DNA of 64,000 nt from an uncultured Clostridium sp. Its GTDB lineage: Bacteria > Bacillota_I > Bacilli_A > RF39 > UBA660. The translations under genes were made by a program, and so were the position numbers. Position 1 is the stretch's first letter, and each line of letters starts with the position of its first letter. Location of the stretch: contig CABULC010000004.1 of assembly GCA_902492325.1 (NCBI GenBank), positions 24,833 to 88,832 of the forward strand, read 5' to 3'. Below, piece by piece: positions 29,083 through 54,883 of this stretch. The notes beneath the pieces are model-generated. The model made no database searches and had not been told where the DNA came from. It saw only the letters and a program-made list of their open reading frames with translations.

Positions 29083-29093
29083 ATATATCCTTT

Positions 29094-29669: not shown

Positions 29670-29670
29670 A

Positions 29671-31892: not shown

Positions 31893-31895
31893 ATA

Positions 31896-33008: not shown

Positions 33009-33021
33009 CTTTTATTCCTTT

Positions 33022-34623: not shown

Positions 34624-34651
34624 CTCTATTCTTAATTCTATACTCAGTTTA

Positions 34652-34681
34652 ATTTTATCATATTTTAGGACTAAATTACAA
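34652..34681 (-). promoter_or_regulatory. Candidate sigma-A promoter for the mcrB-like to giant-protein operon
   Basis: Minus strand TTGTAA, 18-nt spacer, TAAAAT. It lies just downstream of the sipW2 terminator. Confidence 0.35.
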
Positions 34682-34697
34682 GGAAATATACTACTTT

Positions 34698-34730
34698 TAT
34701 CAAAATAAAAAAGCTATTCAATGAATAGCA
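34698..34730 (-). terminator. Rho-independent terminator after sipW paralog 2
   Basis: Inverted repeat gctattca-a-tgaatagc, followed by UUUUUUAUUUUG on the minus transcript. Confidence 0.5.
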
Positions 34731-34748
34731 ATTTTTATATTAAACAAA

Positions 34749-35303
34749 TCATTTAACTTTCTTATAATCTAGTAACAACATTATAAATTTATATAATTGA
34801 TATATAAAGAATGCTGCTAAAGGTAAAATGATACATACAAAGAATCCAACTTTAGCTTTTAAGAATGTTAGGATTGAACCTAAAACCGGTAATCTTGTTC
34901 CATTCCATACAGAGATAATATCTCCAGGAGCAACTTGTTGTGGATCTTCTCCAGTATTAGCATCACCTTGAGTAACATAAGATGTCATACCATTTACTGT
35001 AAGTACTGATTTAATTCTGTGTGTTTTAATTATTTTAGTATTTTCTTCCATTGCGAAGAATGCAATAACATCCCCCTCTTTTAATACAGTTTTTCCATCA
35101 TAACTCTTAGTAACAATTAAGTCACCAGTCTTAATAACAGGTTCCATTGATCCTGTTTGAATATTTAGAGGGATGTATCCAAATATTTTAGAAACTCCTT
35201 TTTCACGAGAAGTTAATGTAATCAAAGTTACACTAGCTGCTAAAATAATAACAACCCAAATTATTATATCTAAAATAACTTTTAAAATCTTTTTTCCTTT
35301 CAT
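34749..35303 (-). CDS. sipW: Signal peptidase I, archaeal/ER-type (SipW-like), paralog 2
   Basis: Box B TGSMEPVIKTGDLIV, box D IIKTHRIKSV, N-terminal TM. Confidence 0.8.
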   Translation of the reverse strand: MKGKKILKVILDIIIWVVIILAASVTLITLTSREKGVSKIFGYIPLNIQTGSMEPVIKTGDLIVTKSYDGKTVLKEGDVIAFFAMEENTKIIKTHRIKSVLTVNGMTSYVTQGDANTGEDPQQVAPGDIISVWNGTRLPVLGSILTFLKAKVGFFVCIILPLAAFFIYQLYKFIMLLLDYKKVK

Positions 35304-35321
35304 ATTACGCCTCCAAAATTA

Positions 35322-36446
35322 CTATACACCAGCATTTTTAGATATTTGAATGTTGAAAGTAATATTAGAACCAGAAGCATTATTTTCACAGTCATAATCT
35401 TGTCCTTCAACCCATCCATATATTCTAACCTTATTAATACCAGCAGCTAAGTTAAATAATGTTTTATATTCTCCATTAGCAGTATTTCCATTTGGAGTTT
35501 GAATATCAGGAGTTACTTGATCAAAATATGTAGTAACTTTTGATTGATAGTCTACTGCAGGATTTGCAGCAATAGCAGCTTTAATACCATAGTAATTAGG
35601 TACAACTGTAGTCGTATCATATGTAGTTTCACCATAGTTGTTTGCTTGTGCTACACCAGCAGCTGTGTGTATATTTGAGTTTGGTTCCCAGAACATATTA
35701 GTAGCACCACCAGCACTATGACTAGCAGCACCTTTTAATGCAATAGCATCTGCACTAGCACCTGTAGCAGCACTACCTTCATAAAGGAATGCAACTCTAG
35801 CGGCATTCTTAAGTCCAGTATCAGCAGCAGTAGCTACAACATCTGATGAAGTTGTTAAATATACTGTAGTAGCTTGTGTAGTTAATAAGAATAAATCAAA
35901 TGCAATAAAGTCACCTGTAGTACCTGCTTTTTCAATAGATTGTTCTGCAACTAATCTATAACCATGAGCAGTAGTAGCATCAGCTTCAATACTACCTTTA
36001 TACATTTTCATAAATCCTGTAGTAGCATCTACATCACCTATAGTAGATACAGGAACAATTTGATTTGGTAATTGGTTTGTATTACCAGCATAAGCATTAG
36101 CAGTAATATCATTAGTTGAAATATTTGCTTTCCAGTTAACAGCATCTACAGAAACTTGGATACCATTAGCAGCACTAACATTTACATCAATGCTATCAAC
36201 AGTAACAGTTGTATTTTCAGTGAACCATGCATAAGATGCAGTAGTTAAAGAAATAGCAGTAACTATCAACATAAGGAATGCAGTAAGAATCTTTTTACTA
36301 TTATTATTTGATTCTTCATGATTTTCTTTTACAACATTGTTTTCAACAACATTAGTTGCTTGTGGTTGAGCAGGAGTATTATTAACAACTGCTTGATCAA
36401 CAGGTGTTGTTTGAACATTGTTTTTTACATTGTTTTCATTTTCCAT
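35322..36446 (-). CDS. TasA/camelysin-like SipW-dependent protein (family 1) with a ~50-aa N-terminal cytoplasmic extension
   Basis: TM ILTAFLMLIVTAISLTTASYAWFTEN. C-terminal motif VRIYGWVEGQDYDC. Confidence 0.5.
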   Translation of the reverse strand: MENENNVKNNVQTTPVDQAVVNNTPAQPQATNVVENNVVKENHEESNNNSKKILTAFLMLIVTAISLTTASYAWFTENTTVTVDSIDVNVSAANGIQVSVDAVNWKANISTNDITANAYAGNTNQLPNQIVPVSTIGDVDATTGFMKMYKGSIEADATTAHGYRLVAEQSIEKAGTTGDFIAFDLFLLTTQATTVYLTTSSDVVATAADTGLKNAARVAFLYEGSAATGASADAIALKGAASHSAGGATNMFWEPNSNIHTAAGVAQANNYGETTYDTTTVVPNYYGIKAAIAANPAVDYQSKVTTYFDQVTPDIQTPNGNTANGEYKTLFNLAAGINKVRIYGWVEGQDYDCENNASGSNITFNIQISKNAGV

Positions 36447-36461
36447 AATTTAATCCTTTCA

Positions 36462-37151
36462 TTAATCAGTTTTTTCAGTAATTATCATAGACATTTTCAT
36501 TTCCCCTCCAATGATATCATCGATACATTCAGGGTCTTTACCTTCAAGCCAAACAATTACAGTGTACCTGTCTATTTCACCAGGTTTAATGTTATTTCTA
36601 TCTTGTTGCATTATTAAATGATTTGATAAAAACGATATTGTATTTGGTTCAGCTTTGCCATCTTTAGACTTTTTAGCATAAACCTTTTTTTCGCCATTAG
36701 TATAAAGAGCAACTCTAACAGCCTCATCAACATTCTTTATAACAGATTCTATAACAATCTTAGATTTATAACTAACATTCTCTTTTCCATCATTTTTTAC
36801 AAAGAACGTATATGCGATATAGTTATCTTCACTATGATCACCTTCTTTTGATATTAAACTATCAAAAGGAATCCACCCTTCAGTAATGTTATCCATATAC
36901 TCTAAACCTTTTACTTTGATTTCAACAGTTTCCGCAGAAAACTCTGAATCAGAAGATAAAAGTATATGTCTTTCAGACTTTAAATTTTTATCTAGTTTAA
37001 TTGTAAAATAACCATTGCTATTCACAACATATAATATTAAATATAATATTGAGAAAAACAGTAATAAAACTAATAAAGCCATTTTTACAATTCTAGTAAA
37101 TAATTTTCGTCTATAAACTTTTTCAGCAGTTACTTTAACAATATTATCCAT
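36462..37151 (-). CDS. Family-1 paralog with an uncleavable-looking N-terminal anchor (possible TapA-like anchoring or accessory protein)
   Basis: TM LLVLLLFFSILYLILYVV lacks the A-W-F motif. The C-terminus shares the family motif VIVWLEGKDPEC. Confidence 0.4.
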   Translation of the reverse strand: MDNIVKVTAEKVYRRKLFTRIVKMALLVLLLFFSILYLILYVVNSNGYFTIKLDKNLKSERHILLSSDSEFSAETVEIKVKGLEYMDNITEGWIPFDSLISKEGDHSEDNYIAYTFFVKNDGKENVSYKSKIVIESVIKNVDEAVRVALYTNGEKKVYAKKSKDGKAEPNTISFLSNHLIMQQDRNNIKPGEIDRYTVIVWLEGKDPECIDDIIGGEMKMSMIITEKTD

Positions 37152-37159
37152 AAAGTCAC

Positions 37160-38281
37160 CTACTTATACATTTTATAAGTTCCATTATCATATTCTTCTA
37201 CAATTGTGGCATTAATACTTCTAGAAAAATTGATAATACTTTCATAATTAGTAACTTCGCCAGGCTTTAAAAATAAATAATTTACAAGACCTTTAAGTTT
37301 AATAGATTTTTGCTCTAGAGTATTTAAATGATAAACGCCAATCATAACACCAGCATTCTTCAGCTCTTTTACTTTAATATCTCTAGAAATTAGTTCACTA
37401 TATGGTACTAAAAATACAAAATGATTTAGAGTTTTAGGCTCAATAATATTAAGCATCTTAGTAACATTAGTTCTAAGTCTAAAAAATCCATTCGGAAGTT
37501 TTATAAAATATAATGTATTCTTTTTATCAGAGAAAACATCTTTAACTATTTGAAAACTTACATTTTCAGCTTCAATATACTTAAAATCTATCGCAAATTC
37601 ATATTTAATAAATGCATCATATACATGACTAGAATCAATACCACTAAATTCTTCTTTATCAAAATGAATTCTTGACATATAGTAATTAATACCATTTAAA
37701 TTACCAACAATGTCATAATAAACTTTCAAAGGTGATTTCGATAATTCTCTTAAACACTTTTTATAATTTTTACTTTCTTTAGTAATATTTTTAATTATTT
37801 TAATATAATTTTCATCAAATAATTCTTTTACTTCAGAATCAAAAAGTGACTTATTCTTAACTTCAAACATCTTTATGATTTCTTCATAACTGTATTTATC
37901 TTTAGTTAATGAATTAGAATATTCTTCTAAAGCAATATTTAAAAGAATAAGTTTAGCTACTAAATAATACCAATTGAATAACTTTTTATTATCAATCAAA
38001 TCTAAGTAATCAACTACATTTTCAAAAATAAGTAAAAGCATTCTTTTTGGTACAATACTAACTACACCATATTTTTCAAATATTTCTGTATATTCTTCTA
38101 GAGCTTTATCTATGTTTCTATTTCCAAAAAAGAAGTCTTGATAGAATTTATCTATACATATTTCAAAGTCTTCTATATTTTTTGGATATGGAACAATCTC
38201 ATCACGAATAAGTATATCTACGTTTTTAAGAATGCATTTAGCTTTTTGTTTTAAAAAAACATCTGCTATGCACCTCATCAT
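37160..38281 (-). CDS. Cytoplasmic hypothetical protein at the head of the fibre operon
   Basis: ORF with no signal peptide and no motif recognised. Confidence 0.4.
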   Translation of the reverse strand: MMRCIADVFLKQKAKCILKNVDILIRDEIVPYPKNIEDFEICIDKFYQDFFFGNRNIDKALEEYTEIFEKYGVVSIVPKRMLLLIFENVVDYLDLIDNKKLFNWYYLVAKLILLNIALEEYSNSLTKDKYSYEEIIKMFEVKNKSLFDSEVKELFDENYIKIIKNITKESKNYKKCLRELSKSPLKVYYDIVGNLNGINYYMSRIHFDKEEFSGIDSSHVYDAFIKYEFAIDFKYIEAENVSFQIVKDVFSDKKNTLYFIKLPNGFFRLRTNVTKMLNIIEPKTLNHFVFLVPYSELISRDIKVKELKNAGVMIGVYHLNTLEQKSIKLKGLVNYLFLKPGEVTNYESIINFSRSINATIVEEYDNGTYKMYK

Positions 38282-38383
38282 TTCCTCCTTACCCTATACA
38301 TTATACAAACTAATTATATACTAGTTTTAGAAAAAACACAATATTTTAACGATAAAAAAAGAAAGATAAACCCTTAAACATTT

Positions 38384-38722
38384 TTATAAGACTATATGTC
38401 TACTTTTAGAAATTATATTTTTATAGTTTTTTAAGTTATTTTGATTATTATTTTGGTTTAATGTTTTACCCAAAGCATTTATACATCCAAGCTTTTGATT
38501 TGGTGTTAATTTTGCTAATTTAACAACTTTACAAGACATTAAAAATCTCATGATATTGTCTACATGACCTAATGTACGACTTGCAGAATTATAAGCATAA
38601 TATACTATATCACCATTACCCATTTCTTTAGAAAAGAATAAATATGAGCCATCCTTTTTTAATTTACCATTTACTACCTTTAATGGAACATATACTTCCA
38701 CATCAGAATGTTCATCAATCAT
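38384..38722 (-). CDS. Small hypothetical cytoplasmic protein
   Basis: 112-aa ORF; function not inferable. Confidence 0.3.
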   Translation of the reverse strand: MIDEHSDVEVYVPLKVVNGKLKKDGSYLFFSKEMGNGDIVYYAYNSASRTLGHVDNIMRFLMSCKVVKLAKLTPNQKLGCINALGKTLNQNNNQNNLKNYKNIISKSRHIVL

Positions 38723-43594: not shown

Positions 43595-45784
43595 TTAACA
43601 CTTCCTTACCTTTACTCTTTTTAATCTTAATGTATTTAACATAACAGTAACGCTACTTAATGTCATTGATAAACCTGCTATCATAGGATTCATATTAATA
43701 CCAAATCTACTTAGTAATCCTATTGATATAGGTATCATACATATATTATAAAAGAATGCCCAAAATAAATTTTCTTTTATAATTTTAATAGTACTTTTAC
43801 TAATATTAATTAAATTAACTATATTTACTAAATTATCATTCATAAGTATTACATCTGATGAATCATTAGCTATATCAGTACCACTTCCAATAGAAACACC
43901 AATAGAAGATGTTGCAAGACTAGGAGCATCATTTATTCCATCCCCTATCATCATAACTGTTTTTTCTTTCATTAAATTATTTATTTCTTTTACCTTTTCA
44001 CTTGGAAGTACATTAGAAATAACTTTATTTATATTTAATTCTTTTGCAATAACATTTGCAGTAACTTCATTATCACCAGTTAACATAATTACTTCTCTAC
44101 TAACATTTAATTCATTAATTATTTTTTTAGCATCATCTCTAATAATATCTTTCACACCAACTAATGCAATTACCTTTTTATTCTCAATAACATAAAGAAT
44201 ACTATTACCATCATTAGTTAACTCTTTTTCATCATTAGAGTAATTATTTTCAATTTTCAATTTTTCAAATAACCTAGCATTACCAATATAATATTTATTA
44301 TCTTCTATCTTTCCTTGTAAACCTATACCATCAATATTTTTATAATTAGTTACTTCTTTTAACTTTAATTTTTCATTCTTAAACGCACTTGCAATTGGAT
44401 GACTAGATTTACTTTCAAGAGACGAAATTATTATATTAAGTTCACTATCTTTATAATCACTATAATTATTTACTTTATTTATTTTTAAATTACCATATGT
44501 TAATGTACCAGTTTTATCAAATACCATAGTATTAACTTTATACGAATTTTCAAGTGTCTCACTATTCTTTACAAGAATACCATTTTTAGCACATACTCCT
44601 TCACTCACGACTATCGCAAGTGGTGTTGCAAGTCCTAAAGCACAAGGGCATGAAACAACTAATACATTAACAAAATGAACTAAACTATTGTTAATACCTT
44701 TACCAAGTAACAAATAACTAGCAAATGTTATAACAGCTATTAAGATTATACTTGGTACAAAGTAACCACTAACCTTATCAGCAAATCTAGCAATTGGAGC
44801 CTTCGTATTACTAGCATCAACAACTAATCTGACTATTTCAGATATTGTTGAATTTTTTCCTATAGCCTTCGCTTCATATAAAACAGAACCATCTATATTT
44901 AAACTACCAGCAACCACTTTATCATTAATACTCTTTTTATTTGGTTTACTCTCTCCTGTAATAAAAGATTCATCTGCATGAGTACTACCATCAACAATAA
45001 TACCATCAACTGCAAACTTCATACCAGGTTTACAAATTAAAATATCTCCCACTTTAACTTCATCAATAGTTACTTCTTTTTCTCTATCTTTAGTTTTAAC
45101 TAAAGCTTTCATTGGAGTTATTTGTACTAAAGACTTTATTGCATCTTTAGTTTTTTCTTTACTTTTAGAATCTATATATCTTCCAAGTTTTATGAAATAT
45201 ATAACTACTCCAGCACTTTCATAATATAAATTATGGACAAACATATCTTTATCAAGAATAATCATAATACTACTAAATAAGCTATAAATAAAGCTTGATA
45301 AGACACCAATAGACACAAGAGTATCCATGTTAGGTGTTTTATGTATTAAGTTCTTATAACCGCCCTTAAATATGTCTAAGCCATAAATCATAAACGGAAT
45401 AGTAAGAACTAATAAACATATAGAATAATTATTAGCATAATTTTCCATATTAAGAAAATCAATAGTTGGAAGTCCTACCATATGAGACATAGATACATAT
45501 AATAAAATCAAAACCAATACACTATATATAATTAAATTTCTTTTAATATTTTTATTTTTTTTCTCTTTAAATAAATCATAAGGTCCTAAACTTTCAAAGC
45601 CTGCTTCCTTAATATATCTTTCAATATCTTTAATATCAATTCCTTCATATTTTATAGTAGCCATCGCAAGAACTAAATTAACTGAAGCGTCCACTATACC
45701 CTTTTGTTTATTTAAATATTTTTCAAGTCCAGAAGAACAAGCACTACAACTCATTCCCCCAATACTAAGATCAATCTTATTCAT
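43595..45784 (-). CDS. copA: Copper-translocating P1B-type ATPase CopA
   Basis: N-terminal HMA GGMSCSACSS, the CPC motif SCPCALGLATP, DKTGTLT, GDGINDAP. The real start is probably MNKIDLS; the track start lies inside the promoter -35 region. Confidence 0.9.
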   Translation of the reverse strand: MNKIDLSIGGMSCSACSSGLEKYLNKQKGIVDASVNLVLAMATIKYEGIDIKDIERYIKEAGFESLGPYDLFKEKKNKNIKRNLIIYSVLVLILLYVSMSHMVGLPTIDFLNMENYANNYSICLLVLTIPFMIYGLDIFKGGYKNLIHKTPNMDTLVSIGVLSSFIYSLFSSIMIILDKDMFVHNLYYESAGVVIYFIKLGRYIDSKSKEKTKDAIKSLVQITPMKALVKTKDREKEVTIDEVKVGDILICKPGMKFAVDGIIVDGSTHADESFITGESKPNKKSINDKVVAGSLNIDGSVLYEAKAIGKNSTISEIVRLVVDASNTKAPIARFADKVSGYFVPSIILIAVITFASYLLLGKGINNSLVHFVNVLVVSCPCALGLATPLAIVVSEGVCAKNGILVKNSETLENSYKVNTMVFDKTGTLTYGNLKINKVNNYSDYKDSELNIIISSLESKSSHPIASAFKNEKLKLKEVTNYKNIDGIGLQGKIEDNKYYIGNARLFEKLKIENNYSNDEKELTNDGNSILYVIENKKVIALVGVKDIIRDDAKKIINELNVSREVIMLTGDNEVTANVIAKELNINKVISNVLPSEKVKEINNLMKEKTVMMIGDGINDAPSLATSSIGVSIGSGTDIANDSSDVILMNDNLVNIVNLINISKSTIKIIKENLFWAFFYNICMIPISIGLLSRFGINMNPMIAGLSMTLSSVTVMLNTLRLKRVKVRKC

Positions 45785-45800
45785 TTTTATCACCATACAC

Positions 45801-45829
45801 ATTATAGGGTATAGGGATTTCCCTGTCAA
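45801..45829 (-). promoter_or_regulatory. copAZ promoter with an embedded palindrome (candidate copper-repressor operator)
   Basis: Minus strand TTGACA, 17 nt, TATAAT. The spacer contains GGGAAATCCC and a TACCCTA element that resembles CsoR-type operators. Confidence 0.5.
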
Positions 45830-45866
45830 CGCTAAAACAAATAAAAAGTACTATTTCTAGTACTAA
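45830..45866 (-). terminator. Rho-independent terminator after the lipoprotein gene, overlapping its stop codon
   Basis: agtacta-tttc-tagtact followed by UUUUUAUUUGUUUU on the minus transcript. Confidence 0.5.
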
Positions 45867-46567
45867 TTAATTTTCTTGTATAAGAATAAAGTTATAACCA
45901 ATAATATACCAATTATTACACCACTAGCAATATACCAGCCACTTATTCCACTTCCAACTTTATCTTTACTAATTGCAAAATAAATATTATTGTCTTCTTG
46001 ATCAATAGTCCAAGTAGCAGTATCTCCATTTACATTTTTCGAATTCGTATTTAATAACTTATCTTTTGCTTCAATTTTAAATTGCATACCTTCTACATAT
46101 CTACATGTATAATATCCAGATAAGCTATAATAATATGCTTCATCATCATCTCTTATATATTTAATACTAAAGCAATTATTAAATATATTATTATTTTTAA
46201 ATTCATCATATTTATATTTATAGGTATACTCATATATAAAGTCATTATTATTTTGTGTTAATTTTCCATTGTATTTATAAGTATCCATATTAGCAAAACT
46301 ATTTATTTTGTTTTCATCAAATAATTTTTCAGAACCAGTTTTTACTTGATAACTAGTATATGTTCTACTAACATTAAATTCTTCATCAGTATCATTTACA
46401 TATTTTGTATATTCATTTGCATTGTATTTTATTGTTATTTTTGAATCAATACCATCTTCTCCAAAGTTATAATATATTTCACTAGTACAACCCGTACACA
46501 AAATAATAACGAATACTAATAAAAATAATTCTTTAAATTTAAGCAATTTTGTAACTTGCATATCCAT
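45863..46567 (-). CDS. Lipoprotein with an additional C-terminal TM
   Basis: Lipobox ILCTGCTS. C-terminal GWYIASGVIIGILLVITLFLY. The start is probably MQVTK. Confidence 0.5.
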   Translation of the reverse strand: MDMQVTKLLKFKELFLLVFVIILCTGCTSEIYYNFGEDGIDSKITIKYNANEYTKYVNDTDEEFNVSRTYTSYQVKTGSEKLFDENKINSFANMDTYKYNGKLTQNNNDFIYEYTYKYKYDEFKNNNIFNNCFSIKYIRDDDEAYYYSLSGYYTCRYVEGMQFKIEAKDKLLNTNSKNVNGDTATWTIDQEDNNIYFAISKDKVGSGISGWYIASGVIIGILLVITLFLYKKIN

Positions 46568-47492
46568 CAACTCCAGAATAATCAAATAAATTTGTTATAT
46601 TAGCACCAGGATCTATAATGTAAACATTACTTCCTTCTACTCTATCAACAAAAACCCAATGTCCCCCACCTTTTACATAAGCAATAACATATTCTCCTCT
46701 ATTTAATGCTTGTCTTAATTGTTCAGCTTTATGAGCATTAGAACCAGTTAAACTAGTTTGTCCTTGATATTTAAAATTTGGTGCTAAATTTGTTACGGCA
46801 CCCCAAACTAATAAATTACCAGAATATCCGCCATTATTATTCATCCAGTTAACAAAAGTTGCCGGATTAAGTGTTGGAACATTTACTCTTACACCACTTT
46901 TAGCTAAAGCTATTGCTACAGAAGTAGAAGTACATCCTGCACCACAAATAGTTTGACTTTTTCCCATTCTATTACTTCCCCAATTTTGAGAACATTGTTT
47001 CCAAGTTCTATAGTCACCTGTAGAAAAATAATTAGAACTACCACCATAAGTTGCACCTTGTGCATTTTTTTCAACTCTTTCGGCTTCTAATCTAGCAGCC
47101 TCTTCAGCAACTTTTTTATTATACTCTGCAAGTCTTTCATCATTTATTTTTTGCATTGCTTCTTCTTCGCTTTTTCTTTGTGCTATATATTCAGATGTAG
47201 CATTAGAAAAACAAGTTCTATATTCACTATTACCAGGAGATAATCTAGTCAAAACATTAACTAATGTTGGAATCATAAATATAACTACAGTAGCAATCAT
47301 CTTTTTAACAGCAGTAGTTTTAATTTTATTTAATAATTCAGGATCTCCATTCATTAATTCTCTAACAATATTAATCATTAAAGAAACCATTAAAATAATA
47401 GGAACAGCTATACTAATAATCATAATTACAGTTTTAACAATCAGCATTACATTAAGTATAGCAGAATTATCACATATAGCTAAAAAATACAT
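46539..47492 (-). CDS. Polytopic membrane protein with a coiled coil and a C-terminal papain-like (peptidase C39-like / C39_2) domain
   Basis: SQTICGAGCTSTSVAIALAKSG gives the Gln/Cys arrangement typical of C39-like peptidases. It is followed by GGGHWVFVD (His). Two to three N-terminal TM helices. Confidence 0.5.
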   Translation of the reverse strand: MYFLAICDNSAILNVMLIVKTVIMIISIAVPIILMVSLMINIVRELMNGDPELLNKIKTTAVKKMIATVVIFMIPTLVNVLTRLSPGNSEYRTCFSNATSEYIAQRKSEEEAMQKINDERLAEYNKKVAEEAARLEAERVEKNAQGATYGGSSNYFSTGDYRTWKQCSQNWGSNRMGKSQTICGAGCTSTSVAIALAKSGVRVNVPTLNPATFVNWMNNNGGYSGNLLVWGAVTNLAPNFKYQGQTSLTGSNAHKAEQLRQALNRGEYVIAYVKGGGHWVFVDRVEGSNVYIIDPGANITNLFDYSGVDGYASYKIA

Positions 47493-47504
47493 TTAATACA
47501 CCCC

Positions 47505-48125
47505 CTAAATATTTCCATGCTCATTTTCCATACTTAATAATTTACTTTTAAGTAAAACTAATCTAAATATTTTATAAATATCATATGAAATAATAACAAG
47601 AGCAGGAATCATTATAGCAATAATCCATCCACCTTTAGATGCTAAGAAAAATTGTACTCTTCCAAGCTGTGGTATTTTAAATAAAACTTTACCAACAACA
47701 TTACTAGGAATAACTTTTTCTTCATCAGCTTTAGGATTAGCATCCCCTTTTACTCTAAACATTTTACCTGATTCAGGTACATTAACAATTTCTATAATTC
47801 TATGTGTTATAGGAGTTCCACCAAAGAAAGAGTTAGTAGAATAAAAAGTAATTATATCTCCTTCTTTTAATTTGTCTGTATCAACTCTCATAGTAAAAGC
47901 AACATCATACACATTTAAAGTACCAGTCATACTAGGACTTATTATTGTATATAAACCAAACAATGGTTTTTTACCTTGCTTTTGAGCAATCTTTCCACTA
48001 ATAACATAAAATATTAAAAATGCAGCTATTGCCATAAGAATACAAATAATAGTATAACTTATGACTTTATAAATCATTTTAAATATTTTTTTTCTCTTAA
48101 TTTTCTTATCCTCTTCCATAAACAA
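47505..48125 (-). CDS. sipW: Signal peptidase I, archaeal/ER-type (SipW-like), paralog 3 (more divergent)
   Basis: TM, box B ISPSMTGTL, box D ITHRIIEI. Confidence 0.6.
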   Translation of the reverse strand: MFMEEDKKIKRKKIFKMIYKVISYTIICILMAIAAFLIFYVISGKIAQKQGKKPLFGLYTIISPSMTGTLNVYDVAFTMRVDTDKLKEGDIITFYSTNSFFGGTPITHRIIEIVNVPESGKMFRVKGDANPKADEEKVIPSNVVGKVLFKIPQLGRVQFFLASKGGWIIAIMIPALVIISYDIYKIFRLVLLKSKLLSMENEHGNI

Positions 48126-48131
48126 ACTCCA

Positions 48132-48692
48132 TTATTCATAAACATAAAGAACTGTTATTTTAGCAATAAACATTTTACCATTTAAATAATTTTGATCTTT
48201 ACCATTATCTTTTAATTTAAGTTTTAATTCATAATCATGTAATGAACCAACACTTATATCACCTATTCCTAATTCAGTTGAAGTAACAGGTATAGCTTGT
48301 TCACTTTTAGTAACCACTTTATCATTATTATTTTTAGAAGATTTACCAGTTAATTCAAAAACAAAACTATCTTCTATAGAATCAGTAAGAGGTTTTTCAA
48401 TATCAAAAATTATTTTATACTTACCTACTGTATCAGGACTATAGTTTTCTACTGAAAATTTATATGTAGACTCCCAATTAGGTTCTATATCGTATGCATT
48501 TATTTGATTTCCATCATAAAATCTTAAAAGCATATTTGAACTTTTTATTATAACTCTAGTTTCATCACCATTTTTAATTGTTTTAATATAGTAAGCATAA
48601 GAAGTACCAATTAACATAGTAAATAAAGCTACTAAAACCAATAAATAAATAACAATATTAAATTTTCTTGCCTTTTCTTTTTCATTGTTCAT
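48132..48692 (-). CDS. Small SipW-dependent fibre-subunit-like protein (family 2, minor)
   Basis: Signal ends GTSYAYYIKT. C-terminus ...NGKMFIAKITVLYVYE. Confidence 0.5.
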   Translation of the reverse strand: MNNEKEKARKFNIVIYLLVLVALFTMLIGTSYAYYIKTIKNGDETRVIIKSSNMLLRFYDGNQINAYDIEPNWESTYKFSVENYSPDTVGKYKIIFDIEKPLTDSIEDSFVFELTGKSSKNNNDKVVTKSEQAIPVTSTELGIGDISVGSLHDYELKLKLKDNGKDQNYLNGKMFIAKITVLYVYE

Positions 48693-48767
48693 AATCTCGT
48701 CACCATACTATATATATAATAACAAAAAACGTACTAGTTTACAAGAAATAATACTAACATAAACTTT

Positions 48768-48803
48768 TATTTACAAATAAAAAAAGTAGTAATTAAACTA
48801 CTT
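48768..48803 (-). terminator. Strong rho-independent terminator directly after the candidate major subunit gene
   Basis: agtagt-aattaa-actact followed by UUUUUUUAUUUG on the minus transcript. Confidence 0.55.
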
Positions 48804-48821
48804 ATTTTATCCTAAATTAAA

Positions 48822-49388
48822 CTATTGTGCATTTTCAACAACAAGTTTACCAGCGAATGTTTTGCCTTGAGCAGCATTTTGATCAGAACCTGATTCCTTA
48901 AATTGAATTGAATAAGTATATGTATGAGTTTCAGTACCATTTAAAGTACCATTTCCTAATACATTTTTTCCAACTCCAGGAACAACTTGCTCAGTGATAG
49001 CTTTAGCAACAGTACCACTATTGTTAGCTTTACCACTTAATGAATGAACAAAATAACCATTTGCAGCGTCACTTAATGTATTTGCAGTAACATCTAAATA
49101 AATAACATAATTAATTTTTTCTGTTGCACCAGATGTTGTATTTACAATAGTAAATGTTTTAGTAGTTTGTGGACTTTCTTCTGGTCTAATATTTGTCATA
49201 TTAATTTCATCACCATCAGTAAATACTACACTACCTAATGTTGCAGTAGTTACGATAATACTAGAAGCTTTATCATTTCCTTGGATAGTAATACTAAACC
49301 ATGCAAATGTTGCTCCAATAATTGCTACTAATAATGTTGCGATACCTATAACAGATAAAAATATTGTTTGTCCTTTATTGTTATCCAT
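48822..49388 (-). CDS. Small SipW-dependent fibre-subunit-like protein (family 2, candidate major subunit)
   Basis: Signal ends GATFAWFSIT. Strong RBS aaagggaggatgaatcATG and its own promoter and terminator. C-terminus ...QGKTFAGKLVVENAQ. Confidence 0.55.
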   Translation of the reverse strand: MDNNKGQTIFLSVIGIATLLVAIIGATFAWFSITIQGNDKASSIIVTTATLGSVVFTDGDEINMTNIRPEESPQTTKTFTIVNTTSGATEKINYVIYLDVTANTLSDAANGYFVHSLSGKANNSGTVAKAITEQVVPGVGKNVLGNGTLNGTETHTYTYSIQFKESGSDQNAAQGKTFAGKLVVENAQ

Positions 49389-49413
49389 GATTCATCCTCC
49401 CTTTGCTATAATA

Positions 49414-49442
49414 ATATTAGCATTTTTAAAAAAAACTTTCAA
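49414..49442 (-). promoter_or_regulatory. Sigma-A-type promoter of the candidate major subunit gene
   Basis: Minus strand TTGAAA, 17 nt, TAATAT, about 25 nt upstream of the GGGAGG RBS. Confidence 0.45.
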
Positions 49443-49497
49443 TAGATTTTTTAAAAGTTTCATCATTGTGATATAATTTTTTTACAAGGGTGATAAC

Positions 49498-52050
49498 ATG
49501 AAAATAAAAATTAAGAAATATATTCCAGAAATAATTTCAATAATTATACCAATAATTATTTTATCTATAGCATGCTTTTTTACAAACACACAACCCTTTG
49601 GCGATTACCTATTACCAAAATATGATGGATTATCACAATATGCAAGTTTTACAATGAATTTCAAGAATGCACTTCTTGGAAAAAATAGTTTGTTCTACTC
49701 TTTTGGAGGATCACTCGGATATAATTTCTATGCAACAAGCATTTATTATATGTTTAATCCAACAAACTTACTTTGTTTATTCGCGACAGAAAAAACAATA
49801 ACAGAATATTATACATTTTTAATATTTTTAAGAATTAGTCTTTCAGCATTCACAATGTGTAAATACTTAAAATATAAATTCAAAAACCAAAGTAATATAT
49901 TTTATATTTCATTAAGTATATGTTATGCATTAATGGGATACAATGTTTGTTATTTCTTTAACTATATGTATTTTGACAATGTAATGTTATTCCCTATTCT
50001 AATGATTGGACTAGACAAATTAATAAATGAAAGAAAAAAAGTTCTCTATATAATAATGTTAACAATCTCAATATTATCTAACTTCTATATTGGATATATG
50101 GAATGTATATTTTGTTTACTTTATTTTATTTATAATTATATTAACTTAAAGAAAAAAGATAATAAAATTATTAAAGATTTTATTATCTCGAGTTTATTAT
50201 CTGGATTTATGTGTATGATAACATTAATACCCGAAATATTAGAATTAATGCAAGGTAAATTAGAACACTTTAGTAGTGAATTTCAAACAAACTATTTTGC
50301 TTTCAACAGTAATTACTTAAATTTCTTCTATAAACTCACTCCAGGAAGTATGATAGAATGTGACATTAAATATGGATATGTTAATATATATGTTTCACTA
50401 CTAGTCGCAGTGTTAGTAATTAAATACTTTTTTCTTAAAAATGTGTCAAAAAAAGAAAAAATAACAACGTTAGTATTTATATTATTCTTCATACTAAGCA
50501 TAAGTTTTAATTTATTAGATTACGCATGGCAAATGTTTCAAAGACCAATATGGTATCCTAATAGATATATATTTACATTCTCATTCTTTTTAATAACAAT
50601 AGCAGCAAAAACATATGCTAATAAAGACAAAATAAATCAACCAATTAAATGGAAAATTATTACAAGTATTATTTATATCATATTAATAACACTAGCAGTA
50701 ATTATTAATGAAAGATTCACATATATGTACGGAGCAATCAAAATCGCAGCATTCATCTTCAGTATAATGTTATTGCTAGAATATATATTCTTATTCGAAA
50801 ATAAGAAAGCAATATTATTAATAACATCAATGCTAATTATAGAACTAACGTTTAACACAATAGTTACATTTAAAGAACAAGAAACAATTTATCCATACAA
50901 TAACTTTCAAAATTCAACACAAGAAAAATTAGATATAACTAATTATATCAAAGAAACTGATAATAAAACAAATAACTTTTATAGAGTAAATCTAGAAAAA
51001 ACAAATATACACACAGAAGGTTCATTCTATCAATATAATGGAATTAACTCATTTAGTTCAATAAAAAACTCAAAATTGCTTCATTTCTTCAAAGATCAAA
51101 TGCTTTATGACGTTATTGACAATACACGATTAATATTTAACTATTATAATCCATATATTACATCATTAATCGGAGTCAAATACATAGATGGAAATGAAAT
51201 AGAATATTACTATGAAAAAGTATATGATAAATATGCATCAACAACAATATATAAAAATAATGATGCATTATCTTTAGGTTTCATGATAAATAAAGATATT
51301 ATAAATTATAAATATATAGAAAATAATTCATATGAAAATACAAAAAACTTAACAAACAAAATGATTAATAAAAATAATAAAGTATATGAATCACTAAACA
51401 AAAACATAAAATTACACAACTCCGAAATAAAAACGATAGATAATACAAAATATGTAATAATAAATAATAAAGATGATAATTACATATCTATAGAAGGAAC
51501 AATAACTAAAGATGGTTTTGTAACATTAAACGAGAGTATTGATTTCTATGTTCTAACAGAAGTTTATATAAACAATAAAAGATTAGAAGGTTATGGAAGA
51601 AACAAAACACCACTAACACTTAAAAAAGGTGATAAATATAAAATAATATTTAGAAGCAATAAAGATAAATATGAATATAAATATATAGAATGGTTCTTAA
51701 TATATATAGAAGATTATAAAGAATTTATAAATGAATTAAAAAAGAATGAATTACAAATAACAGAATATAAAAAAGATGATTATATAAAAGGAATAATAAA
51801 TGTTACAAATGATAAAACCACTCTATTTACATCTATACCATATAATAAAGGATGGAAAGTATTAATAGATGGTAAAGAAAGAAATTATGAAGATTGCGCT
51901 AATGCATTTATATGTGTAAATAATCTAAATGAAGGAAAACATACAATTGAATTTAAATTTATACCGCAAGGATTTATTCCAGGAAGCTTAATATCACTAG
52001 TAACTTTAATTCTAACAATTATTTACATAAAAAAAGAGCGTACCAAATAG
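49498..52050 (+). CDS. yfhO: YfhO-family polytopic membrane protein (glycosyltransferase-like)
   Basis: 850 aa with an N-terminal multi-TM region plus a large extracytoplasmic C-terminal domain, typical of the YfhO family. An extended -10 TGtgaTATAAT lies upstream. Confidence 0.7.
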   Translation: MKIKIKKYIPEIISIIIPIIILSIACFFTNTQPFGDYLLPKYDGLSQYASFTMNFKNALLGKNSLFYSFGGSLGYNFYATSIYYMFNPTNLLCLFATEKTITEYYTFLIFLRISLSAFTMCKYLKYKFKNQSNIFYISLSICYALMGYNVCYFFNYMYFDNVMLFPILMIGLDKLINERKKVLYIIMLTISILSNFYIGYMECIFCLLYFIYNYINLKKKDNKIIKDFIISSLLSGFMCMITLIPEILELMQGKLEHFSSEFQTNYFAFNSNYLNFFYKLTPGSMIECDIKYGYVNIYVSLLVAVLVIKYFFLKNVSKKEKITTLVFILFFILSISFNLLDYAWQMFQRPIWYPNRYIFTFSFFLITIAAKTYANKDKINQPIKWKIITSIIYIILITLAVIINERFTYMYGAIKIAAFIFSIMLLLEYIFLFENKKAILLITSMLIIELTFNTIVTFKEQETIYPYNNFQNSTQEKLDITNYIKETDNKTNNFYRVNLEKTNIHTEGSFYQYNGINSFSSIKNSKLLHFFKDQMLYDVIDNTRLIFNYYNPYITSLIGVKYIDGNEIEYYYEKVYDKYASTTIYKNNDALSLGFMINKDIINYKYIENNSYENTKNLTNKMINKNNKVYESLNKNIKLHNSEIKTIDNTKYVIINNKDDNYISIEGTITKDGFVTLNESIDFYVLTEVYINNKRLEGYGRNKTPLTLKKGDKYKIIFRSNKDKYEYKYIEWFLIYIEDYKEFINELKKNELQITEYKKDDYIKGIINVTNDKTTLFTSIPYNKGWKVLIDGKERNYEDCANAFICVNNLNEGKHTIEFKFIPQGFIPGSLISLVTLILTIIYIKKERTK

Positions 52051-52066
52051 TACGTTCTTTTATTGC
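52030..52066. terminator. Bidirectional terminator between convergent yfhO and the repeat-protein gene
   Basis: agagcgtac-caaata-gtacgttct followed by TTTT. Confidence 0.45.
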
Positions 52067-53634
52067 TTAACTATAATTTTTATTTTCGCATCGAATATTT
52101 TACCTTTATCAACATCTTGATTTATACTAGTATTTTTAAATTCAAAACTAAATTTAAAAGTATAAGTTGTTTTAGCTGGTATTGTAACATTAGAAACAAT
52201 ATTTGAATCTTTATAAGGTGCTCTAGCATTTTTTACAAGAACTGTATTATTTCTACTAATTGTATAATATAAATTATTAACTGAAGTAAAAGTATTCTTA
52301 ACATTCAACCATTTCATGTTAATAACTTGTGGAGAATTTGTATTGTTTGATAGTTTAAAACTTTTAGAACCAGTCCAACCAGGAACAATATTATTTCTAT
52401 TATATGTTGCAGAATCAGTAAGAGTTAATACATATTCTTCGCCTTCAACAATATCTATTGTTGGATCATTACATTTCTCATCACACTTGCCGTCTCCATT
52501 TGTATCACAGTACAAATCACATTTTCCATCCCCATCAGTGTCACAGTTTAAATCGCATTTTCCATCTTTATTATTATCACAATTTAAGTCACACTTGCCG
52601 TCATTATTAGTATCACAATTTAAATCACATTTGCCATCTTTATTTGTATCGCAATTTAAATCGCACTTTCCATCGTTATTTGTATCACAGTTTAAATCAC
52701 ATTTACCATCTTTATCAGTGTCACAATTTAAGTCACACTTGCCGTCATTATTAGTATCACAGTTTAAATCACATTTGCCATCTTTATCGGTGTCACAATT
52801 TAAATCACATTTACCATCTTTATCGGTGTCACAATTTAAGTCGCACTTTCCATCTTTATTGGTATCACAGTTAAGTTCACATTTACCGTCACCATCTATA
52901 TCACAATCTAAATCACACTTTCCATCGTTATTAGTATCACAACTATGATTACATTTACCATCATTATCAGTATCACAATTCAAATCGCAATAACCATCTT
53001 TATTATTATCGCAATTTAAGTCGCATTTACCATCTCCATCAGTATCACAGTTTAAATCACAAATTCCGTCTTTATTAGTATCGCAATTCAAATCACACTT
53101 TCCATCATTGTCAGTGTCACAATTAGTGTTACAAACATCATCTTTATCAGTATCACAATTTAAATCACATTTTCCATCATCATCTAAATCAAGGTTTGAA
53201 TCTGGCCACCCATCACCATCCGTATCACAGTTTAAATCGCACTTTCCATCTCCATCTTTATCTTGATTTATTAAATTTGAATCGGGTTTACCATCACCAT
53301 CTTTATCGATATTAAATGTAGGCTTATTATTCTTTTTAAAATCAATATTAGTATTTGGTTTCTTTTTATCATTACTACAATTAACAAGACACTTACCAGT
53401 ACCATTATCAATATTAATATCAGCAATACCATCACCATCTATATCAATATTCAAGTCTCCATTACCCTTGTGTTTAATATAAAGTCCAGTACCTCCAAGA
53501 ATAAGTATTATGAAAAATAAAAGTAACAATAATAATAGTAATAATCTTCTTTTACGTTTCTTCTCATCCTCTTCTTGTTGATTTTGATTATCATTGTATT
53601 CATAATTGTCATTTAAAGTCACATTATCTTCCAT
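52060..53634 (-). CDS. Membrane-anchored surface protein. It has about 20 tandem 10-aa Asp/Cys calcium-binding-like repeats and a C-terminal domain resembling the family-2 fibre subunits.
   Basis: N-terminal TM LLLLLLLLLFFIILILGG. Repeats DLNCDT(D/N)(K/N)DGKC. C-terminus ...DKGKIFDAKIKIIVKQ parallels the ends of the 186-aa and 188-aa proteins. Confidence 0.6.
   Translation of the reverse strand: MEDNVTLNDNYEYNDNQNQQEEDEKKRKRRLLLLLLLLLFFIILILGGTGLYIKHKGNGDLNIDIDGDGIADINIDNGTGKCLVNCSNDKKKPNTNIDFKKNNKPTFNIDKDGDGKPDSNLINQDKDGDGKCDLNCDTDGDGWPDSNLDLDDDGKCDLNCDTDKDDVCNTNCDTDNDGKCDLNCDTNKDGICDLNCDTDGDGKCDLNCDNNKDGYCDLNCDTDNDGKCNHSCDTNNDGKCDLDCDIDGDGKCELNCDTNKDGKCDLNCDTDKDGKCDLNCDTDKDGKCDLNCDTNNDGKCDLNCDTDKDGKCDLNCDTNNDGKCDLNCDTNKDGKCDLNCDTNNDGKCDLNCDNNKDGKCDLNCDTDGDGKCDLYCDTNGDGKCDEKCNDPTIDIVEGEEYVLTLTDSATYNRNNIVPGWTGSKSFKLSNNTNSPQVINMKWLNVKNTFTSVNNLYYTISRNNTVLVKNARAPYKDSNIVSNVTIPAKTTYTFKFSFEFKNTSINQDVDKGKIFDAKIKIIVKQ
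52490..53230 (-). repeat. Tandem 30-bp-period coding repeats (imperfect, ~20 or more units)
   Basis: Recurring tcacatttgccatctttatcggtgtcacaatttaaa-like units are visible on the plus strand. They generate the plus-strand shadow ORF 52316..52948. Confidence 0.7.
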
Positions 53635-53683: not shown

Positions 53684-54883
53684 TCAATATTTAGAAATAG
53701 TGAAAACAGGTTTAACATCTAATTTAGTAGTATAATTTTCTTTTACATAAACATCATAATTAAATTGAACTGAAGAACCATAATTTTCTATACCGCTACT
53801 TATTAACCAATAATTTCCAATTAACAACTTTTTATTTTTCATTTTATCAAATATATTAGCATATTCACTATAAGATAATATTCTAATCTTACTTTTACTA
53901 TAATTATTACATGACCAATTATTAGAATTTATTTCATCTTTAGTAAATCCTCCACATCCTTCATCATTTAAACAACCACTAGTGATAAAGTCATCACATA
54001 TTGGTGTATCTTTTAATTTATTTTGAATTTTTTCATTTAAAGTTTTAATATAAACATTATTAAGATAATAATTTATATATGAATTGCTCCATTTATAATT
54101 AACTGTTTTATCATTTGTATAATAACAATAATTACTTTCAACATCTAAACAATGATATAACTTTTCATCAAGTGAATTTTGTTTCATAAGAGTTATATCA
54201 TCTTTATTATCATTAAGAACAATATAATTAATATCATCAATTGATATTATAGAACCATCACAATAATATTTATTTTCGTCATACTCCGCTTTATTTCCTA
54301 AAAAGCATTCTACTGTATAAGAATATGATTTACTTAAATTTCCATCTTTATCTTTAAACCAAATATAATGCTTTCCTTCATCAAATGATTTAATAATAAT
54401 ATTATCAGTATAATTTGGTTTAATCCATTCACCTTTTAAATTATCAGAATCAGATATTAAATATTCTAAATTCTTTTGATTTACACTAAATGAAATAATA
54501 TTGTTGTTCTTATTAATTTGCGCATTTATCAAAATAAAATCAGGGCATTCTTTTTTATCAATTTTTATTTCATCAAGTTGAGTCTTACTAATACAATAAT
54601 CACCTGATTGTATTATAAAACTAACATTTTTATAATCATCAACTTTAATATTACCATTGCCCTCAAAATAATAATCAGTATTTAATATTTTAGTTTCAGT
54701 ATATATCGCACCACTCTTATACTTATATTCACCACTATCTAAAGTATATAAATACTCAAGTAAATTTCTTGATTTATTAAGCAAATGAATATTATTAAAT
54801 CTAAATATAAAAAATAATAGAATCAGTAGCATAACCACTACGAATAAAATAATTGTAATAATATATTTTTTTGCGTTTTTCAT
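53684..54883 (-). CDS. N-terminally anchored extracellular protein of unknown function
   Basis: TM YIITIILFVVVMLLILLFFIF followed by a Cys-containing extracellular region. Confidence 0.45.
   Translation of the reverse strand: MKNAKKYIITIILFVVVMLLILLFFIFRFNNIHLLNKSRNLLEYLYTLDSGEYKYKSGAIYTETKILNTDYYFEGNGNIKVDDYKNVSFIIQSGDYCISKTQLDEIKIDKKECPDFILINAQINKNNNIISFSVNQKNLEYLISDSDNLKGEWIKPNYTDNIIIKSFDEGKHYIWFKDKDGNLSKSYSYTVECFLGNKAEYDENKYYCDGSIISIDDINYIVLNDNKDDITLMKQNSLDEKLYHCLDVESNYCYYTNDKTVNYKWSNSYINYYLNNVYIKTLNEKIQNKLKDTPICDDFITSGCLNDEGCGGFTKDEINSNNWSCNNYSKSKIRILSYSEYANIFDKMKNKKLLIGNYWLISSGIENYGSSVQFNYDVYVKENYTTKLDVKPVFTISKY

Follow-up and report, generated by a model that had tools for sequence, protein, structure and literature searches.

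A probable TasA/BsaA-type fibre operon with an attached two-gene hydrolase cassette in an uncultured gut bacterium

Genes and expression signals of the locus

A stretch of 64,000 nucleotides (nt; the window) from the genome of an uncultured Clostridium sp. (GenBank assembly GCA_902492325.1, contig CABULC010000004.1) was analysed around a group of five closely spaced open reading frames (ORFs), which lie on the minus strand between positions 45863 and 49442 and encode proteins of 188, 186, 206, 317 and 240 amino acids (aa) in DNA with a GC content of about 25%. An earlier note, made from the DNA letters alone, had described the group as a small SipW locus with a major subunit, a terminator, a minor subunit, a signal peptidase, a membrane protein with a C39-like peptidase domain and a lipoprotein, and all five ORFs were found where it had placed them on the minus strand. 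With moderate confidence, we regard the locus as a TasA/BsaA-type fibre operon that shares one transcription unit with a self-contained two-gene hydrolase cassette.

The gene for the putative major fibre subunit (48822..49388; 188 aa) is followed by the gene for the minor subunit (48132..48692; 186 aa), by sipW (47505..48125; 206 aa), by the gene for a membrane-anchored predicted hydrolase (46539..47492; 317 aa) and by that for its lipoprotein partner (45863..46561; 232 aa), all on the minus strand. The gaps between the minor subunit gene, sipW and the hydrolase gene amount to 6-12 nt, the hydrolase gene starting 12 nt past sipW, and the lipoprotein gene overlaps the hydrolase gene by 23 nt. 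The lipoprotein ORF is open from 46585 (240 aa) and its start is, judged from the sequence, most likely the ATG at 46561, while sipW likely starts at an ATG at 48119, giving 204 aa, as called in relatives. Because of the short gaps, the 23-nt overlap, the hairpin after the lipoprotein stop codon and the promoter of copA that comes next, the unit is bounded by the two hairpins T1 and T2 described below, and its order is therefore major gene, T1, minor gene, sipW, hydrolase gene, lipoprotein gene, T2.

The closest relatives are all uncultured gut metagenome-assembled genomes, labelled Bacilli, Mollicutes, Tenericutes, Mycoplasmatota or 'Clostridium sp. CAG:524/CAG:628', and the family of the 188-aa protein comprises more than 558 proteins at E<=1e-3. 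A census covered 79 species-level loci, and the denominators given in the following are the loci where the respective feature could be judged. In 45 of 67 loci, a SipW gene follows the major gene at a distance of no more than 4 kb. The order of major gene, minor gene and sipW is kept across related loci, with the minor gene directly 3' of the major gene in most of them.

A sigma-70-type promoter of the major gene (49414..49442, minus strand; TTGAAA, 17 nt, TG-extended TAATAT) matches 9 of 12 consensus positions. In DNA of 25% GC, the promoter scan alone performed no better than chance and returned 43 sites as compared to 33.6 ± 5.7 in shuffled sequences. However, when 18 ortholog upstream regions were aligned, belonging to subunits of about 40% to 98% identity, the -35 element TTGAA with its TTGA core, the spacing, the TG-extended -10 element and a GGAGG were kept between variable flanks. 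The consensus-like promoter proposed in the earlier note is thus present and conserved in orthologs, although its scan score alone is not above chance. Seven nt before the ATG, the ribosome-binding site GGGAGG (49396..49401, minus strand) could be read from the sequence as predicted, and its GGAGG is conserved in relatives.

About 20 nt past the stop codon of the major gene follows an intrinsic terminator or attenuator, T1 (48779..48812, minus strand), in which the hairpin AAGUAGU-UUAAUU-ACUACUU, with a 7-bp core at 48803..48784, precedes seven U residues. This core contains only two G-C pairs and amounts to about -6 kcal/mol (extended fold -12.3 kcal/mol, z -3.1), and T1 was overlooked by the consensus scan because its stem has fewer than three G-C pairs. 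Of 52 related loci, 46 have a hairpin with a T-run at the equivalent place, the stem sequences being different, and such conservation with varying stems is the pattern that would be expected of a functional terminator or attenuator. What had been called a strong terminator is therefore real as a hairpin with its U7, but 'strong' overstates its modest stability. As far as sequence evidence goes, the conserved promoter, ribosome-binding site and hairpin support the proposal that the major subunit is highly expressed and that read-through beyond its gene is attenuated. A second promoter-like site before the minor gene (48716..48744, minus strand; TTGTAA-17-TATTAT, TG-extended) comes from the consensus scan only. 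The unit ends with a terminator-like hairpin obtained by RNA folding, T2 (45840..45864, minus strand; AGUACUA-GAAA-UAGUACU plus U-tract; -9.1 kcal/mol, z -1.95). An Rfam scan of positions 45000..50000 revealed no RNA family.

Fibre subunits and their signal peptidase

The 186-aa protein is, as had been claimed, a paralog of the 188-aa protein, with 30% identity in BLASTP (E 4e-22) and a probability of 98.9% in hhalign. Against the Pfam profile PF12389 (Peptidase_M73; IPR022121), the 188-aa protein reached 20.5 bits over its residues 14-178 (profile positions 11-181 of 196) and the 186-aa protein 14.5 bits, and the profile was matched at E<=0.01 by 28 of 56 aligned close relatives, the best value being 9.2e-7. 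Judged from these matches, the two proteins appear to belong to the TasA/camelysin (PF12389) family as a divergent branch; the distinction that the earlier note had made between this 'family 2' and the TasA-like proteins is not upheld, because this is the family of the window for which PF12389 similarity can be detected. No match to NCBIfam TIGR04088 was found for the 188-aa protein. When the profile of the 188-aa family (A1) was compared with the ORFs of the window, none beyond the subunits and a 524-aa repeat protein was related.

Both subunit signals end in G-x-(T/S)-(F/Y)-A/(W/Y)-(F/Y) after a long hydrophobic stretch, the signal end of the 188-aa protein being ...IGATFAWFS. The B. subtilis TasA query used for comparison is identical to PDB 8aur, whose mature chain begins at A28. 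Despite a weak probability of 27%, hhalign paired GATFA/WFS of the 188-aa protein with GGTWA/AFN of TasA, and the same alignment paired INMTNIRPE..TKTFTIVN of the 188-aa family with VNLSNLKPGD..TKDFQFEN of TasA. It places F31 of the 188-aa protein at P2', equivalent to F29 of TasA, and an aromatic P2' residue is described as the feature that makes TasA a SipW substrate (PMC10269814). From the alignment with the TasA A27/A28 site, we infer that SipW would cut the major subunit after A29 (A29/W30), with Phe at P2', and the minor subunit after A33 (A33/Y34). A SipW-type signal motif with an aromatic P2' residue is present, and the TasA-type cleavage motif is kept in all paralog classes.

Modelling of this subunit family, as suggested in the earlier note, yielded a beta-sandwich with a flexible N-terminal arm. 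In the AlphaFold 2 monomer model of the 188-aa protein (predicted local distance difference test, pLDDT, 77), a hydrophobic helix (residues 6-27) is followed by a disordered arm (28-46) and a beta-sandwich (47-186), so that with the predicted cleavage site the protein divides into signal (1-29), arm (30-46) and sandwich (47-186). The mature major subunit would comprise about 159 aa with a Thr content of 14.5%. Structure matches of the model are generic carbohydrate-binding or adhesin beta-sandwiches.

Two side observations concern the same proteins. Residues N38, in the predicted donor arm, D58 and K77 of the 188-aa protein are kept in 51 of 56 close relatives and are offset by 2-3 residues from the intermolecular isopeptide triad N35/E56/K74 of BsaA (PMC11580942), a parallel that is purely positional and based on the residue numbers quoted there; in the minor paralog, the Asn/Asp/Lys residues are shifted by one position. 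Also, major-type subunit genes form tandem arrays with 2 to about 8 members in the related loci L069, L080, L081, L083, L060, L016 and L027. Array members have the same N-terminus and divergent mature domains, which suggests heteropolymers or antigenic/adhesive variation.

The segment KGQTIFLSVIGIATLLVAIIGATFA(W/Y)F (residues 5-31) is nearly invariant in about 100 major-type paralogs from the window and from loci L007-L085, while the mature domains of these proteins drop to 25-40% identity. Column identity was 0.76-0.91 for the 27 N-terminal residues as compared to 0.2-0.35 for the mature domain, in a set picked with a permissive motif that inflates the N-terminal figure somewhat. Within the N-terminal codons, identity was 0.54 at position 3 and 0.93 at positions 1 and 2, and because third codon positions vary freely, selection acts on the peptide. 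By these figures, conservation of the segment exceeds what would be expected for a cleaved Sec signal. The signals of TasA and CalY are likewise conserved to an unusual degree, so that it may be a property of SipW-cognate signals.

The 206-aa protein obtained 90.2 bits with TIGR02228 (cut-off 51.85), the profile of SipW-type (archaeal/endoplasmic reticulum-type, ER-type) signal peptidase I. Residues S65, H108 and D134 are invariant in an alignment of the three SipWs of the window with B. subtilis SipW. With the Bacillus SipW equivalog NF046067, a score of 86.2 bits was obtained against a cut-off of 190; judged by these profile scores, the protein is of the same type as Bacillus SipW and not an ortholog-level match. 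Two further SipW-like genes in the window (28540..29082 and 34749..35303) scored 94 and 86 bits with TIGR02228. The 206-aa protein, at 90 bits, is therefore not the 'third and more divergent' SipW that it had been taken for. The neighbours of the two other SipW-like genes (28540..38722, minus strand) encode N-termini ending in SYAWF or AYGWM motifs; neither a match to PF12389 (E<=0.01) nor any resemblance to the A1 profile was found for them, and these 'family 1 TasA-like' proteins were rejected as relatives of the 188-aa and 186-aa subunits for lack of A1-profile similarity.

The membrane hydrolase, its lipoprotein partner and neighbouring genes

In the 317-aa protein, a PF18895-like module with two transmembrane helices (residues 1 to about 95) is joined through a long helix with a Gly/Ser linker to a C39_2-like domain (160-317). 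Its AlphaFold 2 model shows the two transmembrane helices and a globular domain at 160-317 with a pLDDT of about 90. In Foldseek searches with the whole model, the top matches were the C39 domains of LahT150 (6mpz), ComA (5xe9) and PCAT1, with TM-scores of 0.52-0.58 on the target and E 0.03. With sequence profiles, the protein reached 20.2 bits for PF13529 (Peptidase_C39_2), below the gathering score of 24, and 14 bits against 22 for PF03412 (C39 bacteriocin leader peptidases); no ABC domain is present in the protein. Some relatives reach the PF13529 threshold (P0124, P0126 and P0137; precomputed matches). When the profile of the 317-aa protein (A2) was compared with PDB sequences, low-complexity and coiled-coil noise and a marginal C39-like match (3erv, E 1.2) were obtained. 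Residues Q166, C187 and D294 are kept in 15-16 of 16 relatives and H278 lies inside a conserved GHWVF motif. The Gln/Cys/His arrangement noticed earlier thus holds and the predicted fold is C39-like. Cys7, Pro75 and Cys94 are invariant in the two-helix module. Because many Lys and Arg residues occur in the loop that connects the two helices, both ends of the module seem to face outward, which suggests that the catalytic domain is located outside the membrane.

An exhaustive search with the 140-residue module (residues 1-140; members P0144-P0290) led to 1,644 representative clusters, and family size is taken from this search, a word-indexed homolog search with the N-terminal module alone having retrieved 5 proteins only. 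The module is N-terminal in all 150 best matches and C-terminal in one weaker relative (L037). Among 148 module proteins, the C-terminal domains are M23 (11), C39_2 (11; best E 9.3e-9), M15_4 (9) and CHAP (7), and more rarely VanY (2), NlpC/P60 (2) and glucosaminidase (1). Apart from the esterase-like and Lactamase_B domains mentioned below, the domains recognised on this module are the catalytic set of lysins; PF13529 itself is listed among the catalytic domains of lysins of Gram-positive-host phages (PMC8223927; PMC10541714). We found no named family that covers the two-helix module, and the family appears to be uncharacterised.

Domain swapping is also seen at related loci. Two module genes follow sipW in L006, one with a CHAP domain (56 bits) and one with Peptidase_M15_4; an M15_4 form lies directly after sipW in L021 and further downstream in L032, L033 and L038, and L034 encodes another C39_2-like form. 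In the proteins at the equivalent position, Peptidase_M15_4 reached 28.6-36 bits (gathering score 25). Because of this swapping on the same module, and because the hydrolase-lipoprotein pair also occurs away from SipW and subunit genes, the 317-aa protein reads as a membrane-anchored peptidoglycan hydrolase and not as a subunit-specific protease or cross-linker. The second processing or cross-linking step that the earlier note had attached to the C39-like domain is accordingly not upheld, given the M15_4 and CHAP swaps at the same position and a cassette that exists without subunit genes.

The lipoprotein has a signal ending in ...LCTG/C, which is followed by a domain of some 190 aa and by a transmembrane helix at the C-terminus. 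Its lipobox L-C-T-G-C has a non-canonical Cys at -3 when compared with [LVI][ASTVI][GAS]C, whereas homologs have LSGC, LAGC and MTGC lipoboxes, and one homolog matches LPAM_1 with 22.1 bits against 20. As had been supposed, the last gene of the unit probably encodes a membrane-anchored lipoprotein. A PDB sequence search with this protein gave nothing meaningful. Each of the lipoprotein homologs found is encoded directly 3' of a hydrolase gene, and the lipoprotein partner accompanies the module protein in all four lineages examined.

Locus L088 has an M15_4 form together with a homolog of the lipoprotein (29% identity, E 6e-26) in the midst of housekeeping genes, and its contig encodes neither a SipW nor a subunit; four other module proteins likewise have housekeeping contexts. 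The module is encoded directly after sipW in 9 of 42 loci and anywhere downstream of sipW in 13 of 42, and it is missing from 29 of 42 SipW-bearing loci. Because the pair at L088 lacks a SipW and adjacency to sipW was seen in 9 of 42 loci only, gene neighbourhoods identify the hydrolase-lipoprotein pair as an autonomous cassette that was joined to the fibre operon in the lineage of the window, and its putative link to the fibre as lineage-specific. As the cassette directly follows sipW with no terminator in between, it is probably co-transcribed with the fibre operon.

A gene for a YfhO-family GT-C glycosyltransferase of 850 aa (49498..52050, plus strand; PF09586, 492 bits; NCBIfam PgfM1/PgfM2) is transcribed divergently from that of the major subunit, an arrangement also seen in many relatives. 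In about 35 related loci, a YfhO match was found 5' of the major gene, strict adjacency being satisfied in 19 of 58. PgfM1 and PgfM2 are enzymes of protein glycosylation in S. mutans. The glycosyltransferase is possibly part of the fibre system, in which case the fibre might be glycosylated.

The 524-aa repeat protein (52060..53634, minus strand), which is conserved beside the operon in relatives, has an N-terminal transmembrane segment ending in ...LGGTGLYI, about 19 copies of a 12-residue Asp/Cys-rich unit, CDLNCDTDKDGK (36-nt period and 19.4 copies in tandem-repeat analysis), and a C-terminal domain homologous to the subunits. This homology covers residues 403-523 (hhalign probability 94%; A1 profile E 1.3e-7), and the C-terminal motif that the protein had been said to share with the subunits is real and part of it. 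The protein may act as a stalk or tip subunit that binds calcium.

Further upstream, a 399-aa membrane-anchored protein (53684..54883, minus strand) carries a C-terminal DUF6273 domain (23.7 bits against 23.5). Most relatives encode the DUF6273 protein immediately 5' of the fibre genes, and its gene adjoins the major gene where the YfhO and repeat protein genes are missing, for example in L031-L039. At the other end of the unit, the promoter of copA, a copper P-type ATPase gene, was found by the consensus scan (45801..45829, minus strand; TTGACA-17-TATAAT) and matches 12 of 12 consensus positions. Because this perfect promoter lies where the listed ORF begins, the true start of copA is probably a downstream ATG (MNKIDLS...) and not the listed TTG. 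In relatives, a gene for a CsoR-type repressor occupies this junction.

Proposed model, alternatives and comparison with known systems

The locus is read as a fibre operon because of the PF12389 matches, the cleavage site aligned with that of TasA, the TIGR02228 score, the gene order, the disordered arm, and the conserved promoter and terminator. Major subunit, terminator or attenuator, minor paralog and dedicated signal peptidase of the SipW-dependent fibre-subunit locus that had been proposed are all supported. The locus does not represent a new processing pathway; its core is a divergent TasA/BsaA-SipW system of an already described sort. In the model that we propose, the conserved promoter and strong ribosome-binding site would drive the major gene, and the modest hairpin would pass part of the transcripts into the minor gene and sipW, to which the promoter-like site in the gap may add. 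Such attenuation would provide an excess of major subunit. The subunits would be exported by Sec and then cut by the SipW-type peptidase. By analogy with TasA and BsaA, the mature major subunit would most likely polymerise by donor-strand complementation, and the minor paralog might nucleate, cap or anchor the fibre; assembly has been described for TasA/TapA fibres (PMC9674648; PMC10151520) and for BsaA/BsaB (PMC11580942). The cassette would contribute a membrane-anchored extracytoplasmic peptidase, presumably cleaving peptidoglycan, and its lipoprotein partner. Since folded proteins are held back by the peptidoglycan layer (PMC11580942), a local hydrolase would make sense. A role of the cassette in making a local opening in the wall for the fibre nevertheless seems less likely than not, and the cassette may simply be a co-transcribed autolysin that shares the operon.

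Several observations weigh against this interpretation. The PF12389 score of the 188-aa protein (20.5 bits) is below the gathering score of 22.5, no match was obtained when the A1 profile was compared with PDB sequences, and the hhalign probability of the 188-aa family with TasA alone is weak (27%). At L034 and L038, the hydrolase-lipoprotein pair is 1-4 kb away from sipW, behind unrelated genes that include one for a UvrD/PcrA-type helicase; some of the linkage may thus reflect inherited gene order and not shared function. Also, the module family includes proteins with esterase-like (Peptidase_S9, GDSL) and Lactamase_B domains. We found no biochemical evidence for peptidoglycan cleavage by a C39_2 domain, so that the argument for this activity is one of domain context.

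Other explanations of the two cassette genes were considered. The C39-like membrane protein might act on the subunits, in a second proteolytic maturation or in transglutaminase-like cross-linking after SipW. Papain-fold enzymes include transglutaminases. The papain-fold Cys/His/Asp triad of the 317-aa protein, the leader-peptide-cleaving C39 domains that are its closest solved folds (6mpz, 5xe9 and PCAT1) and the position of its gene 12 nt past sipW would fit this idea. However, a zinc peptidase of the M15_4 type or a CHAP domain can replace the C39-like domain at the same position, the wider module family carries the usual lysin domains, and the cassette exists without subunit genes and is missing from most (29 of 42) SipW-bearing loci. 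On reading the subunit sequences, no double-glycine leader was seen either, and we consider subunit processing unlikely. The pair might also be left over from a monoderm conjugative type IV secretion system (T4SS), or form part of one, with a VirB2-like module fused to a VirB1-like hydrolase, and would then be unrelated to the fibre. PF18895 (T4SS_pilin) has been used as a VirB2 marker (PMC12102498), and the N-terminal module is related to it, with matches in 26 of 148 relatives (best E 6.9e-10) and weak NCBIfam matches to Mycoplasma membrane proteins of integrative and conjugative elements; the 317-aa protein itself reached 18.3 bits, below 26.6. However, no VirB4, coupling protein or relaxase was found in the annotations of the window or in five sampled contexts, which consist of housekeeping genes, and the pair occupies a syntenic chromosomal position across genomes, which makes such an origin very unlikely.

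For the subunits themselves, one may think of non-polymerising secreted or surface proteins, for example a camelysin-like protease or a monomeric adhesin, as the Pfam name Peptidase_M73 and the fold matches to generic carbohydrate-binding or adhesin beta-sandwiches would indicate. The protease label of the TasA/camelysin family is, however, likely a misidentification (PMC11580942), and no metalloprotease motif HExxH was seen on reading both sequences. The disordered arm, the dedicated SipW, the pair of major and minor subunits and the tandem paralog arrays fit fibre subunits, so that we regard non-polymerising proteins as improbable. Another proposal takes the conserved segment (KG/QTIFLSVIGIATLLVAIIGA...) for a class-III, type-IV-pilin-like signal that is cut after Gly6 and whose helix stays as filament core or membrane anchor. 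The 27 N-terminal residues are indeed far better kept than the mature domain, with selection at the protein level, the N-termini are identical within tandem paralog arrays, type IV pilus-related genes occur elsewhere in the window, and the K-G-Q motif of the major subunit is similar to archaeal prepilin cleavage sites. However, what is linked to the locus is SipW and not a pilus ATPase, a platform protein or a prepilin peptidase; the minor subunit and other paralog classes lack KGQ and yet have the TasA-type cleavage motif, and PF07963 (N_methyl) is not matched. We regard a pilin-like signal as extremely unlikely. A broader version, in which the N-terminal segment is a working part of assembly, either as a K-G/Q-cut, retained anchor or core helix or as an element that docks the subunit from SipW to the fibre, with the cassette making an opening in the wall over the site of assembly, appears highly improbable as well; if true, it would mean a hybrid of pilin-like and TasA-like fibre assembly.

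If the locus is a TasA/BsaA-type fibre operon with an attached cassette, as we favour, it extends the TasA family to a large uncultured gut group of Bacilli or 'Mollicutes' known only from metagenome-assembled genomes. In Bacillus biofilms, donor-strand fibres of the TasA type provide the main protein scaffold, and relatives of them occur in clostridia and archaea. The locus would also offer a clean, comparatively supported case of stoichiometry control by promoter and attenuator, and the cassette wired into the fibre operon provides a testable idea for the passage of a folded subunit through peptidoglycan. A possibly more useful side result is a membrane-anchored hydrolase family of about 1,600 clusters, in which one two-helix module is combined with interchangeable lysin-type domains.

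Proteins of the TasA/BsaA family encoded beside SipW, often as several paralogs, are widespread, with 2,172 proteins reported (PMC11580942). As in tapA-sipW-tasA of B. subtilis and sipW-tasA/calY of B. cereus, a dedicated ER-type signal peptidase is encoded here beside its presumed substrates, the signals end in G-x-T-(F/W)-A/x-F with an aromatic P2' residue, and major and accessory subunits are present. A beta-sandwich with an N-terminal arm, as in the donor-strand fibre of TasA (8aur), is predicted here by the monomer model. In contrast to TasA with its 234 aa, the mature subunit has about 159 aa and sequence similarity is marginal. The operon also differs from those of Bacillus in its order (major gene, terminator, minor gene, sipW), in an accessory subunit that is a paralog of the major subunit and not TapA-like, and in its host, which belongs to an uncultured low-GC (about 25%) gut 'Mollicutes/Bacilli' lineage.

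In the C. perfringens operon sipW-bsaA-bsaB-bsaC (PMC11580942), SipW is similarly combined with two TasA-like paralogs, one polymerising and one accessory, polymerisation being predicted in our case. Residues 28-38 of BsaA are reported to be disordered (PMC11580942), as is the N-terminal arm in our monomer model, and the conserved Asn/acidic/Lys residues (N38/D58/K77 here and N35/E56/K74 in BsaA) are a positional parallel only. Unlike the bsa operon, the locus lacks a von Willebrand A protein and has no sortase next to it, and it is flanked by the hydrolase cassette and the YfhO gene; the cassette is absent from the list of usual neighbours in PMC11580942.

A membrane-anchored hydrolase inside an operon for a surface structure is also known from PrgK and the TcpG/VirB1-like enzymes of monoderm T4SS, which are specialised peptidoglycan hydrolases of envelope-spanning machines and have modular lysin-type domains (CHAP, M23, NlpC/P60, glucosaminidase). 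In contrast to these systems, secretion ATPase or channel genes are absent from our locus and the cassette also occurs alone in housekeeping contexts. With the C39 peptidases LahT150, ComA and PCAT1, which gave the best Foldseek matches, the 317-aa protein shares a papain-like fold and the Gln/Cys/His/Asp residues. Unlike in these enzymes, the domain is not fused to an ABC transporter, is extracytoplasmic according to its predicted topology, and is interchangeable with cell-wall peptidase domains.

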